Below are positions 18,001 to 24,000 of a stretch of 64,000 nucleotides of DNA, piece by piece. The stretch is from Escherichia coli. Lineage in GTDB: Bacteria > Pseudomonadota > Gammaproteobacteria > Enterobacterales > Enterobacteriaceae. The position numbers are program-made. Location: the NCBI RefSeq assembly GCF_045037415.1, contig NZ_CP173440.1; one strand, written 5' to 3'. How positions within the stretch are numbered: position 1 is the first letter of the stretch; each line of letters starts with the position of its first letter.

Positions 18001-21000
18001 GCCGCCAGCCGGGCAGCTCTTTGCGGCGCTTCCCAGCGGTCGTCGCTGTAACCTGCCACTTCAGAGAGATAGTCCTTCTCGAGTTGTTTAGCCGTGTAGC
18101 AACGTCCCCCCAAAAACATCCGCATAGCTTCTTTCGTTTCAGCTCTCACGAATCTTGTCCTCAGCCAAAGCTAATGTACGCATACATTAGCATTAAGTAT
18201 CCGGTTCAACAAAAATCAGGAAACCGATCTGATTTAGTGCATGTGGCTGTCTCTTTTGGATTATCGCTTTTGCGTTATGGTATACAGGTTACCCCTCCCC
18301 CTCTTTTCCCGCTGGTCTACTGTAGTCGACACAAAAGACAGGAACTGCGGTATGTCCTGATAATATTGTTTGAGTTTTAATCACGAAGCAGAGGGTATCG
18401 CATACAGTAGACACAACGCAGCCAGAATAACGCTCGATGTAAAATTTAGATCGTTGTCGCCTGCAGTAGACATTCCTGGTATCGACTCTGGTGCATCCAA
18501 TACTGACCCGTTCCCGGATCATGGCAGAGCATCCAGTAGACACGGTATGGAAGGACGTCAGTCCTCACCTTTCCGTCTGTTTTGACTGTGTCGGAGACGA
18601 CGGTTGCGGTTATTGTTGATGCCTTTGGCCGTCAGGTGAATACCTGTCAGTCAGGTAACTCTGTCGTTACATTTGATGCCCGAAAATCATAATTACCACA
18701 TATTAATCCGGGCATTCCGGAAAATTGTACCTGCCTGAAGAGTATCAAACGATACCTGTCTCCCCTCCTCTGAATTATCTGCTCAGTCGAGAACCTTGAC
18801 GATCGGGTGATTCAGTTTCGGCAAATGGCAGCATGATAATGTCAGCCAACAGCGTGCTGGTGAATTTATTGTCGGGCCAGACGAATTCTGTTTGTCACTG
18901 CATACTGCATGCCGGGCAGAGGAGTGAACAACGATCGAACTGAAACAGTTGCAGCGTCGTATGGAGAAAGAATGGGTTGGTTTCAGGCGGTGCTTCGGTC
19001 GGTTTCAAACAGTGTCTGACCGACTTCTGGTAAGTTTCTCCCTTGCTGTCTGGTGATTCTGTCTTGCCCGGATTGTTGACTATTGATGATGGTGTTTATC
19101 CACAGCTTAGAATAATAACAGAAGCTTAACTAAAGCTAAGAAAAGGACAAAAAAGACTAATAAAAGAATAACGTTTTAGTGAGGCCTTGAACTACGGGGC
19201 TCTCAGGCCATCTCTGTCAACGCTGGCGGGTATTCTATCATTGCTGGCGGGTGAACCATCATCGCCAGAGGGTATACCATCAACGCTAACGGGGCAATTA
19301 TCATCGCCAGAGGGTAGATTTTATCAACGCCAGCGGGTAATCTGGTAAAAATATCCACATCCGGGATTTTATAAAATGGCCAATGATAACAATCAGTTAG
19401 CGCTAATTATCACTGAGCAAGATAAAAGTTCTGGTGAAGTTATACATTTGGTTCCTAACTCAAAACAGAGTATTCAACCTAAATCGCTACTGCGATTGGG
19501 GGTCTTTGTTCCGACAGTCAAGGATGGCAGCGACCCTATGGCACGAGGTCATGTCATCGATGCAACGACTGAGTTGTGTCGTCTTTCTTCTATCGCTGGA
19601 GAGGGGTACGAAAAGATTAGTATTTTTGGGCCCAGGCTTGATATGGATACGGATTTCAAAGTCTGGCTAGGGATCGTGGACACACTCGCCAACACGTTTC
19701 TTGAGCCTGATGGGACTGTTAGGGTCAATTTTATTGATTTTGCTTTCAGTTGTGGGCTTGCTACAAAACGAGTTGATTCAAGGTTAAGGAAACGTTTTAG
19801 CGACTCACTGACACGGATCCAGCACACCCATTTCCAGTTCATCAAAAACTCAACAGTAGAAGGGAAAAAAGTAAAGATCGACATGAGCCTGGTGTCTACT
19901 TCTTACTATGATGAGGGAACCGATGAGGTCATTATCAGGCCAAATCCGGATTTGAATACTCTGTATCGTGTCGACGGGAAGACCCGACTTTACTTAAAAA
20001 TATTGAAGACCCTGTCTCGAAAAGAATCAGCCCAGGCACTGTATCTTTATCTAGTTGAATTACCTGACCATTTTTATCGCATTGGATTCGACCGCTTAAG
20101 AGAACGGTTGCAGCTGACTTCACACAAAGGTGCTCAGAATGCGACGATAAAAAAAGCGTTAGAGCAACTGGATGAAGCTGGTTTTTTAAAATACACGATA
20201 GAAAAAAATCGTGGGGATTATGTACTGGTCATTCTTAGTCGAAACAAAAAAGTTACCTGAGTTATTTAGGTAAAATCAGTCATTTACATTACACACTGAC
20301 TCCAGAGTGTAGTTTCAAGAGTTCGGGTTTTTAGCTAACGCAGCAAACCGCACCAGGTAATTACCCTCCAGGGATGAGGCTTTACACCAGCAGCACCCTG
20401 TTTACCCGCCAGCGTTGAGGATGACCACCAGCAGCGACCACGCTTACCCGTCAGCGTTGAGGATGGTCACTGGTATCGCCCCTGTTTACCCGCCAGCGTT
20501 GACGGTGACCACCGACAGCGGCCACGCTTACCCGCCAGCGTTGAGGATGACTACCGGCAGCGGTCCCGTTTACCCGCCAGCGTTGAGGATGACTACCGGC
20601 AGCGGTCCCGTTTACCCGCCAGCGTTGAGGATAGCCACCGTCAGCGGCCACGTTTACCCGCCAGCGTTGAGGATAGCCACCGTCAGCGGCCCCGTTTGCC
20701 CGCCAGCGTTGAGGATGAGCACCGGCAGCGGCCACGTTTACCCGCCAGCGTTGAGGATAGCCACCGTCAGCGGCCACGCTTACCCGCCAGCGTTGAGGAT
20801 AGCTACCGTCAGCGGCCACGCTTACCCGCCAGCGTTGAGGATAGCCACCGTCAGCGGCCACGTTTACCCGCCAGCGTTGAGGATAGCCACCTTCAGCGGC
20901 CACGTTTACCCGCCAGCGTTGAGGATGAGCACCGTCAGCAGCCCCGCTTACCCGCCAGCGTTGAGGATAGCCACCGTCAGCGGCCCCGTTTGCCCGCCAG

Positions 21001-24000
21001 CGTTGAGGATGAGCACCTGCAGCGGCCCCGCTTACCCGCCAGCGTTGAGGATGAGCACCGTCAGCAGCCCCGCTTACCCGCCAACGTTGAGGATAAGCAC
21101 CGTCAGCGCCCCCGTTTGCCCGCCAGCGTTGAGGATGAGCACCGGTAGCGGATCCGTTCACCCGCCAGCGTTGAGGATAAGCACCGTCAGCGGTCACGTT
21201 TACCCGCCAGCGTTGAGGATAAGCACCGTCAGCGGTCACGTTTACCCGCCAGCGTTGAGGATGAGCGCCGTCAGTGGATCCGTTTACCCGCCAGCGTTGA
21301 GGATAAGCACCGTCAGCGGTCACGTTTAACCGCCAGCGTTGAGGATGAGCGCCGTCAGTGGATCCGTTTACCCGCCAGCGTTGAGGATAAGCACCGTCAG
21401 CGGTCACGTTTAACCGCCAGCGTTGAGGATGAGCACCGGCAGCGGCCCTGTTTGCCCGCCAGCGTTGAGGATGAGCACCGGTAGCGGATCCGTTTACCCG
21501 CCAGCGTTGAGAATGATTCCCCTCCACCGACCCCGGTTACACGCCAGCTTTGACACTACCAGCGACTACAGTCGACATTAAAATCGCCGTGACCTGCTGC
21601 AGCGCGATATACGCCCGGCTGGCATCAAAAGAATTTTAACCAAACAGCACACATCCAGCGGTACAGGAGGCCAGGTTTAACCCGGGGCAGAAACAGATTG
21701 ATCTATAGCGACTTGTTAGGATCATTTAGCAAAAACCAATCCCGAAAGGCCTGCTTGCTATCGAAGGTGGGAAGGTTATGTATGGACAAGTTCCAGTTAA
21801 TGATTTTCACTATAAAAGACAAAAATTCAATTTCAGCCTCATTCAGTACACCCTCTCCTTTTTTCCGTATATAGAAGTCATACCATCGTTCGTAGGCGGC
21901 AACATTGATAGATTCAGATGCTTCCAGAAGCCGGGGGATATAATAAACCAGTTCTTCAAAGGCAATACTGCCTTGAGGGATATCAGAACGGCTCAGGCGA
22001 CAAAGAAGGTTAATCGTGGCTCGAAGGTGATGCCACTGCTGTGCCGGGGAGGATGGGAGGGCGTTCATGCTTATCGGAAGTTCATGAGGAATTAAAGCAA
22101 GGATCTGATTTCCACTGGTAGACAGCTCACGCCGGTACTGGTGTAGAGTATGGTGTTTAACCTTCTTCATCATAGGATGGTAGATCCATTTTTTCGCTTC
22201 CTCAGAAACGAAAAGTAACTTTTCTATCGCATCCATCATCTTTATGCCTTCTCCACTCTCACGATATGGAGCGATGATACTTTCAATCCGAACGGCATCG
22301 ATCTCCACCAGCGCCAGCTGGTCTGTTTGCGCTAACAGGTCTGGATTGGGCTGGATATCCTCCGACGTATCATTAATAAATATCCCGATTGTCGTATCGT
22401 TACATATCCCTGTGAGGTCAGCATTAAGGCCACAAACAATCCCACCACCAGCGAGATTTTTGAGGTTAACTATCCCTTTCTCCTTACCCTGCAGAAGATG
22501 AGGGAGAGCAAGGTATTTTTTTTCCTGTATTTTCACCTTTATGTATTTTTTTATATGTTGTAGTGTGAGCTCACTACAAACCCCTTTTACTTCTGTGCTG
22601 TGGCTAAAATGCCATTTTTTATTTTGACCCTGTTTGGCAATCAGGGAGGTCCCACAGATGAGGCAGATACAGTTACACGAAAGCCCATTTTCAACGCTGG
22701 CGATATCAACAATTTTATTTGAATCCGTATCAAATCCAAACGGGATCCATTTTTGTGCATTACGTCGCATGTATATTCCTCGTTAAAAATGAGTAAAGGA
22801 ATTCTACATCATCCGTTTTTATCAAACCTGGAATAACAGCGTCTAATTACATTATTCATATCTCATCGGGGATGAGATGCCACATGGAAGCAGGTATTTT
22901 GTCATAGTTTTTTTTCATGTAGATCTCAGCCCTGCGGTGATCATAAGCTCCGTTCAGGCTGGTTATCTTATTCATATCCCCACCTTCATCATTTAATTTA
23001 TCCAGGATACGCTCAAACACTCGGTCAAGGGTTTCAGTCGTACTGCACTTTCTGAACTTCAGGAGATAGGTTTCTCTCAGGCTACTGTGCGCATTTGGGC
23101 TTTTCAACAACGACGCTCCGGGGCATGTTCAAAAACACTGGCTATTTTCGAAAACAGTAAACGAAGTTCCACGCACAGGCAAGAGAAGCCATTTGATTAA
23201 TTCACGTTCTGCCTGGATTTGAAAAAAAACAATGTTACTATACTGGCTATAAAAACAGTGTGCGCCGGGGAACCGGTTAGAGATCAAGGGGTGAAAGTCC
23301 CCGACCATTGAAGGACCAGCAATCCACAAGGTCCCCGAGTCATGCGTTGCATACCGCGAGGTATGGGGCGAAGCGTTGACAGGGGTGTTGACAGGCCAGC
23401 CATTGAGCCACGAAATGTATATTAAATTACCGGGTGCCGACGTTGTACTGTTAACGGAAGGCAACATCATAGGGTGCGATACTGCGAGTGCCACATGGAC
23501 CCGGCGGGGTCTGAGACCCTGGCATGTCAATACGATCTCTACGCGGGAACCGGGAGATCTCCCCTCTGACCATCTGCCAGTGTCGGAGATGGCCCGCACC
23601 GGGAAGACGAGGAGTCATAGCCGGTGATGTACGGAGAGGAGAAGTCGGACTCGCTCATAGTAGCGGCGAAGCAGGCGAACAACCCGAAAGGAGCGGAGTC
23701 AGTGGAGCGAAGGAGCGGGGCCAAGGGGAACGCGGAACAGCCACACATGCGCCGGACACAGAGCCGGGAAAGCATGTCACAGAGGCTGTCACGCGTGCGG
23801 GAAGCTGCGAAGCAGCGGAAGAAAGAACGGTTTACAGCATTGTTCCACCTGCTGACAGTCGAAGCACTGGAAGCCGCATTCCTCTCCCTGAGCAGGAAAG
23901 CGGCCGCCGGAGTGGATGGCATCAGGTGGATGGACTACGCCGGAAACATGAAGAACAACATAACAGATCTGCACCGGAGGCTACATCAGGGCAGCTACAG

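Follow-up and report, generated by a model that had tools for sequence, protein, structure and literature searches.

In the annotated sequence of phage P1 (NC_005856), the elements of the replicon follow one another in the order DnaA site, Dam sites within an AT-rich stretch, five incC iterons at a spacing of 21–22 bp, repA and incA. The last of these comprises nine RepA-binding iterons that begin right after the stop codon at spacings of 30–31 and 40–41 bp and are labelled an incompatibility determinant; read from the sequence, three of the nine have the orientation of the origin iterons and six are inverted. Here we describe a locus that can be compared with this system in a 64,000-nucleotide stretch of Escherichia coli DNA (contig NZ_CP173440.1 of assembly GCF_045037415.1), hereafter the window, to which all position numbers refer and whose G+C content is 45%. 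The locus consists of a rep gene, iterons upstream of it and, directly downstream, an array of 27 tandem 42-bp units that each carry an iteron. Its anatomy, the homology of its Rep to P1 RepA, the conservation of the iteron half of the unit, the covariation of iterons among relatives and the length changes in unit register were computed directly. Taken together with what is known of P1, they make it likely that the array is an expanded and homogenised incA-like bank of Rep sites, which would work by handcuffing and titration, in a theta replicon of the P1/RepFIB type.

The RepFIB-type replicons of large enterobacterial plasmids, of which the classical RepFIB of P307 is a member, resemble the window replicon in Pantoea, Erwinia, Salmonella and E. 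coli alike: they encode the same Rep family, and have about five upstream 21-bp iterons and downstream iterons that are mostly inverted. According to reviews, iterons downstream of rep modulate copy number through titration and handcuffing (PMC12361487). In the IncHI1B repA replicon of the Klebsiella plasmids that carry the locus described here, an "Iteron-1" array comprises 10–30 units of 34 nt in blocks of 10, and a doubling of this downstream array was reported alongside a fall in plasmid copy number from 2.43 to 1.33 (PMC9602619). "Iteron-1" and the window array are both tandem iteron arrays of variable copy number that lie directly 3' of rep and outside the origin; however, they belong to different replicons with different Rep proteins, their units measure 34 nt and 42 bp, respectively, and "Iteron-1" has already been described. 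Similarly, the R46-type iteron region of the IncN plasmid pKpn2146b is repeated 30.6 times (PMC4048246), so that tens of tandem iteron units occur both there and in the window, although the IncN (R46/pCU1-type) plasmids are an unrelated group. Tandem units of about 43 bp and variable number are also found in F sopC and in IncFIB-4 parC (8–23 copies of a 43-bp repeat; PMC8957301). Those arrays serve partition via ParB/SopB, whereas the window unit, likewise variable in number, carries a Rep iteron and lacks an internal inverted repeat.

Anatomy of the replicon and its downstream array

All the elements that had been listed in the original prediction, which was made from the sequence alone (a DnaA box, an AT-rich tract, six iterons of ~21 bp, rep and the array), are present in the sequence where it had placed them (Table 1). 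The Rep protein contains a Rep3_N (WH1) domain (Pfam, E = 2e-8) and a weak match to Rep3_C (E = 0.027), and is 40% identical to phage P1 RepA across 91% of the protein (tblastn) and 43% identical to SSU5 RepA; members of the family in Pantoea, Erwinia, Salmonella and E. coli relatives are 41–83% identical to it. Searches of Rep against NCBIfam and against PDB sequences gave no match. In a Foldseek search with an AlphaFold model of moderate quality (mean pLDDT, the per-residue model confidence, 66), the top 13 PDB matches, albeit with low TM scores, were all iteron-type winged-helix initiators, namely RctB, RepE, Rep/TrfA, pi and a WH1 domain. Because of the homology of Rep, its predicted fold and the P1-like order of the elements, the earlier reading of the locus as an iteron replicon is supported, and its type appears to be that of phage P1 and RepFIB.

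The comparison with P1 extends to several details. Both loci run from a DnaA box through an AT-rich tract and iterons to rep and downstream iterons, and in both the origin iterons, five in P1 and six in the window, are spaced 21 bp apart. The P1 iteron GATGTGTGCTGGAGGGAAA and the window iteron have GCTGGnGGG in common. Further, the distal downstream iterons are inverted in both (six of nine in P1, all in the window), and the downstream spacing equals whole helical turns in both (31 and 41 bp, or three and four turns, in P1; 42 bp, or four turns, in the window). The loci differ in that the window has 27 downstream sites compared with nine in P1, in that the window array is perfectly head-to-tail at 42 bp whereas P1 incA has unique spacers, and in that the window array lacks the proximal copies in the same orientation as the origin.

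Within the origin region, the two DnaA-type boxes, one exact and one with a single mismatch, stand on opposite sides of the iterons, and the exact box TTATCCACA is the sole exact match in the whole window. The AT-rich tract contains about three A-rich repeats of 10–11 bp at 19141–19171 (Tandem Repeats Finder: period 11, 3.1 copies). The six iterons are directly repeated, at spacings of 21, 21, 21, 21 and 23 bp, immediately upstream of rep. GATC (Dam) sites are absent from 18934 to 19671 and hence from the AT-rich tract, whereas the AT-rich stretch of P1 oriR has five annotated Dam sites and GATC-containing 11-mers are found in the relatives L100 and L102 and in Pantoea loci. On this comparison, the missing GATC is best seen as a departure specific to the lineage, which gives no ground to exclude homology with the P1 type. 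The long 42-bp array appears at the same phylogenetic point as the loss of GATC from the AT-rich repeats, relatives with 80–83% identical Rep having kept GATC.

The main site of variation among the origin iterons of the window is the central trinucleotide (CCA/CTG/TTA). Further, in the IncHI5-type locus L083 (4150–4909), the non-iteron half of the array unit holds ACCCG-TGG-GCGTT, offset by 16 bp from the main iteron, which corresponds to both conserved iteron flanks with a complemented center. Because the center varies in the window origin iterons and is complemented in L083, these sequences suggest two contact halves around a tolerant iteron center.

Tandem Repeats Finder delimits the array at 20400–21516, with a period of 42, 26.6 copies, 87% matches and a score of 1499. 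The array starts 140 bp past rep and has a G+C content of 64%; each unit comprises one iteron (TACCCGCCAGCGTTGA on the plus strand) and a variable spacer of ~17–21 bp. Consistent with the ~27 downstream units reported earlier, a search for the 13-mer CCGCCAGCGTTGA with up to two mismatches gave 27 plus-strand matches at exact 42-bp spacing, together with a degenerate copy at 21541, and minus-strand matches in four of the six origin iterons; the total of 35 matches compares with 1.4 expected and was reached in none of 100 shuffles. Origin iteron 1 and most array units have arms that are complementary at 16 of 16 bases, which confirms the predicted inverted orientation of the array copies with respect to the origin. 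Since the 42-bp period amounts to four helical turns, all sites of the array would lie in phase on one face of the DNA. Of the departures from the consensus over the 27 units, 12 fall in the 21 columns of the iteron and 105 in the remaining 21 columns (Fisher p = 1.5e-21); the iteron half is thus ~9-fold better conserved than the spacer half within the array.

Five array units between 21088 and 21390 carry a GATAAGC spacer variant that creates TTATCCTCA on the minus strand, a DnaA-box-like 9-mer with one mismatch. A view of the 42-bp unit as two 21-bp halves, one intact and one degenerate iteron, is not claimed here: self-similarity in the window type is weak (15 of 42 positions at offsets 20 and 22), the IncHI5 type has other best offsets, and the period-22 row of Tandem Repeats Finder has only 56% matches. 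The array is also unlikely to be the actual origin, given that the DnaA box and the AT-rich tract lie upstream of rep and that the array, at its high G+C content, adjoins no AT-rich region. A structured RNA was considered as well, and Rfam had no match at E ≤ 0.1 in 18000–23000.

Table 1. Positions of the replicon elements, the array and neighboring features in the window
Feature	Position	Strand	Basis or remark
Whole locus, DnaA box to array end	19096–21533		
DnaA box TTATCCACA	19096–19104	+	Outer edge of origin, where P1 oriR also has its DnaA site
AT-rich tract, probable unwinding element	19107–19180	none	G+C 24% (whole window, 45%)
Six origin iterons, consensus (A)TCAACGCTGGCGGGTA	19213–19340	+	Starts at 19213, 19234, 19255, 19276, 19297 and 19320
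Second DnaA-like box ATATCCACA, one mismatch	19351–19359	+	Between the last origin iteron and the rep start
rep gene, 294-aa winged-helix iteron initiator, RepB family/RepFIB-like	19376–20260	+	Open reading frame (ORF), Pfam, P1 RepA homology, fold
Degenerate leading unit	20358–20399	-	Unit register listing, repeat-family search
27 tandem 42-bp units	20400–21533	- (iteron strand relative to origin copies)	Tandem Repeats Finder, core search
Degenerate trailing unit ACACGCCAGCTTTGA	21534–21576	-	1-bp shift; core search, register listing
355-aa ORF with CoiA_N-type zinc finger	21703–22770	-	E = 2e-5; conserved next to the array in both clades
Isolated partial iteron TCAACGCTGGCGA	22691–22703	+ (origin orientation)	Within the first 27 codons of the 355-aa ORF; membership of the system uncertain
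1.9-kb insertion relative to pKpvST147B_virulence	23259–25170		Between hha and a tyrosine recombinase gene
Group II intron reverse transcriptase/maturase ORF	23624–25111		TIGR04416, E = 8e-112; inside the 1.9-kb insertion
Tus-like protein (DNA replication terminus site-binding family)	27943–28902	-	E = 8e-21, below curated cut-off; ~6.4 kb from the array
18-bp tandem repeat, 14.8 copies	34251–34516		Higher-order 63-bp period at 97% matches; within a 654-aa ORF (33331–35295)

Conservation and length of the array among relatives

An array in the same position was found in a sister clade of IncHI5-type plasmids (Klebsiella variicola, Enterobacter cloacae and Klebsiella michiganensis), whose Rep is 87% identical to that of the window and whose 42-bp array has 18.3 copies. 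The unit of this clade retains GTTTACCCGCCAGCGnTGA next to a spacer unrelated to the window spacer, and the two clades have the downstream gene order in common (rep, array, 355-aa ORF, hha, integrase). The conservation of the iteron half while the spacers diverged points to selection on the integrity of the Rep site. In the more distant E. coli and metagenome relatives L100–L102 (Rep 80–83% identical), CTAGC-centered iterons are present both upstream and downstream of rep, and in Pantoea relatives (Rep ~44%) as well as in P1, the downstream iterons are copies, mostly inverted, of the replicon's own iteron. Across the family, the downstream iterons therefore co-vary with the origin iterons of the same replicon. 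Directly after their own three inverted iterons, the E. coli contigs L100 and L101 (Rep 80%) also have, at 4460–4500, a P1-type iteron pair, GTGTGCTGACGGG and CCCTCCAGCACACAT, which places sites of two Rep specificities side by side.

The original prediction had called the number of downstream iterons much larger than usual. This holds against textbook cases such as the nine sites of P1 incA, and the closest relatives without a long array (Rep 80–83%) have three or four downstream iterons and a clade with 61% Rep identity has none to two. Within the family the claim holds less well: by a crude k-mer count, the number of downstream sites within 2.5 kb in 69 family loci has a median of 5 and a maximum of 20, and Pantoea plasmids carry three direct and 11–17 inverted downstream copies, irregularly spaced, across 1–1.4 kb. 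Outside the family it is weakened further by the ~30 iterons of the IncN plasmid (PMC4048246) and the 10–30 units of 34 nt in IncHI1B (PMC9602619). The 27 copies of the window are thus at the top of the family range, at three times the P1 count, and there is precedent for a control region of ~1.1 kb. It is the homogenised tandem form that is particular, the regular 42-bp array being found only in the IncHI-linked clade.

Array length was compared over 16 loci whose rep DNA is at least 99% identical, disregarding a 293-bp deletion that four of them have within the gene. The arrays comprise 3.4, 6.8, 9.4, 11.8, 12.6, 14.6, 14.8, 20.0, 20.8, ~23, 23.5, 24.6 (two loci), 26.6 (the window), ~27 and 28.8 units. 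When each distinct 42-mer was coded as a letter so that unit order could be compared between arrays, the length differences proved to be insertions and deletions of whole units, in keeping with the earlier suggestion that the array may vary by slippage. Compared with that of its nearest relative, the window array differs by a single 84-bp, two-unit insertion: it reads ...STUT[VT]WRXY, compared with ...STUTWRXY in pKpvST147B_virulence and pSI646A. Of the inserted units, V is a chimeric junction unit that combines the 5' variant of W with the 3' part of U, which is the outcome expected of one unequal crossover or slippage event at a two-unit offset. In the pK2044 lineage, an 8-unit duplication, a 9-unit deletion and larger deletions were found.

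Proposed role of the array and alternative explanations

The literature on P1 and other iteron plasmids (Chattoraj and Austin) is the basis for the binding and handcuffing mechanism considered here, and, given the P1 annotation, the reviews of iteron plasmids and this literature, an incA-like mechanism appears most likely for the array. From homology and conservation, we infer Rep binding by the array, handcuffing and titration, and an effect on copy number. The origin iterons would bind monomers of the Rep encoded just downstream, and the array would provide additional Rep-binding sites outside the origin. Rep bound to the array could then pair with Rep on the origin iterons, both in cis, by looping over ~1.1–2.3 kb, and in trans between sister plasmids (handcuffing), while the array would also titrate Rep. 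Pairing and titration together are predicted to keep the copy number of the replicon close to one per chromosome and to make the array a strong incompatibility determinant, which would grow and shrink in whole units by unequal recombination or slippage. The array is, on this account, an enlarged and length-variable form of a well-known copy-number brake and not a new kind of element, and the conceptual gain is small, replication brakes made of downstream iterons being textbook knowledge.

Several observations weigh against a role of the array as an incA-like brake. The ~9-fold range in unit number (3.4–28.8) at essentially the same rep indicates that unit number is not tightly constrained. Four pLVPK-like plasmids, pKP37-vir, pBS433-2, pKP81324 and pKPK3-1 (loci L092, L096, L097 and L098), have in common the 293-bp internal rep deletion (nt 559–851), which leaves an annotated product of 194 aa, yet they keep arrays of 3.4–28.8 units with intact cores; they presumably replicate from the IncHI1B replicon. 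Nearly all carriers are typed with an additional IncHI1B replicon, so the FIB-like replicon and its brake may often be dispensable. Part of the length differences could be an assembly artefact, although the occurrence of identical arrays in independent assemblies argues against pure assembly noise. A candidate for an autoregulated rep promoter within the origin iterons is a promoter-like match at 19214–19241, inside iterons 1 and 2, with such matches occurring at chance frequency (three found compared with 2.4 expected). Finally, no published account of the 42-bp array turned up in literature searches, which included the core sequence in both orientations; where typing papers on IncHI5 and IncFIB plasmids discuss iterons, these are the iterons of repHI5B or of other IncFIB types, and the array goes unmentioned.

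Some of these observations would also be accounted for if the array were a largely neutral, self-expanding iteron satellite, that is, a variable-number tandem repeat (VNTR) generated by unequal recombination, which binds Rep but has no selected regulatory role and persists in a replicon auxiliary to IncHI1B. The spread of unit numbers at near-identical rep, the retention of arrays in the rep-deleted plasmids and the second replicon typed in almost every carrier all fit such a satellite. We nevertheless regard it as unlikely, because conservation within arrays is 9-fold higher in the iteron half than in the spacer, because the iteron half has been retained between two clades whose spacers have wholly diverged, and because downstream iteron fields are a conserved trait of the family. 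Moreover, in CG23-I virulence plasmids the IncHI1B repA is reported to be truncated and repB to be complete (PMC9602619), which indicates that the FIB-like replicon is sometimes the working one.

A partition centromere bound by a ParB-type protein, like F sopC with its 43-bp units or IncFIB-4 parC, is suggested by the period of 42 compared with 43 bp and by a variable copy number resembling that of parC arrays (8–23 copies; PMC8957301). It is very unlikely: the consensus unit dimer contains no inverted repeat of at least 5 bp, what is conserved in the unit is the Rep iteron, the matching pKpvST147B_virulence record shows no annotated par gene in the 12 kb that flank the locus on each side, and the array adjoins rep as incA does in P1, whose parS is elsewhere. 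It is even harder to credit that the array is a gene for a protein of 14-residue repeats, as the RefSeq label "hypothetical protein" would have it. Long ORFs do run across the array (20415–21329 and 20696–21148 on the plus strand, 20451–21527 on the minus strand), and the NCBI annotation pipeline PGAP calls coding sequences over it; however, these ORFs are explained by a unit whose length is a multiple of three and whose G+C content of 64% leaves several frames open by construction. The annotated coding sequences vary in strand and extent (plus in L002, minus in L094, none in pK2044), the plus-strand ORF is cut by a single-unit variant (TTTAACC), and the minus-strand ORF has no NCBIfam match. 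Substitutions divide among the codon positions as 27, 52 and 38, with no third-position excess; in the long minus-strand ORF, third positions have the fewest (27 of 117). The 9-fold change in unit number also argues against a coding role.

Protein-bound repeat arrays can stall replication forks, as in R6K/RK2 and the FR element of Epstein-Barr virus (EBV FR), and a Rep-coated array might therefore mainly be a fork barrier that makes replication unidirectional, or part of a termination system with the Tus-like protein of the plasmid. The array does lie on one side of the origin, 140 bp beyond rep, and a Tus-family gene is found 6.4 kb away. We consider a barrier as the main function highly improbable, since the Ter sites that Tus recognizes are specific and bear no relation to the iteron; a barrier would, in any case, be compatible with handcuffing and not exclusive of it.

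Returning to the incA-like bank of Rep sites, we tentatively raise an extension that we think has a small chance of being correct: that the loss of all origin Dam sites together with the expansion of three or four downstream iterons to a 20–30-unit array in the IncHI-linked Klebsiella clade marks a change in replication control, with the array as a heritable and reversible copy-number "rheostat." If so, the loss of Dam sites would also have removed methylation- or sequestration-type control, and frequent whole-unit mutation could change how many copies virulence and carbapenemase plasmids have within an outbreak or a single infection or, alternatively, alter the relative use of the FIB-like and IncHI1B origins. 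If array length, which differs between near-identical plasmids, sets copy number, it would also set the dosage of hypervirulence and carbapenemase genes and the incompatibility behavior of the plasmid.

Distribution of the replicon and neighboring features

A Megablast search against PLSDB matched the locus to 959 plasmid records, of which 900 come from Klebsiella; the matching plasmids include pK2044 and pKpvST147B_virulence and are typed by MOB-suite as IncFIB plus IncHI1B. The replicon is thus carried by large Klebsiella plasmids that bear hypervirulence loci and carbapenemases. Positions 7001–35609 of the window are 99.8–99.99% identical to pKpvST147B_virulence, except in the array and at the 1.9-kb insertion. 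The gene is named "repFIB-like" in the literature on IncHI3/IncHI5 plasmids and corresponds to repB of the virulence plasmids (PMC9602619).

In related records, RefSeq/PGAP annotates the array as hypothetical proteins, labels that we regard as mis-annotation. The array appears to disrupt short-read assemblies, and plasmids might be tracked at fine scale by using its length as a VNTR marker. Breaks in draft assemblies seem to fall in this region: the Klebsiella grimontii contig L003 ends 180 bp past rep, and for the identical Rep, which belongs to a 436-member protein cluster, the longest contig is just 2092 bp.

Beyond the array, the isolated partial iteron TCAACGCTGGCGA recurs at the same offset in window-type relatives that retain that stretch. 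The 654-aa ORF farther downstream is annotated as a VWA-domain protein in a related record, and the 18-bp repeat within it is probably a coding repeat.

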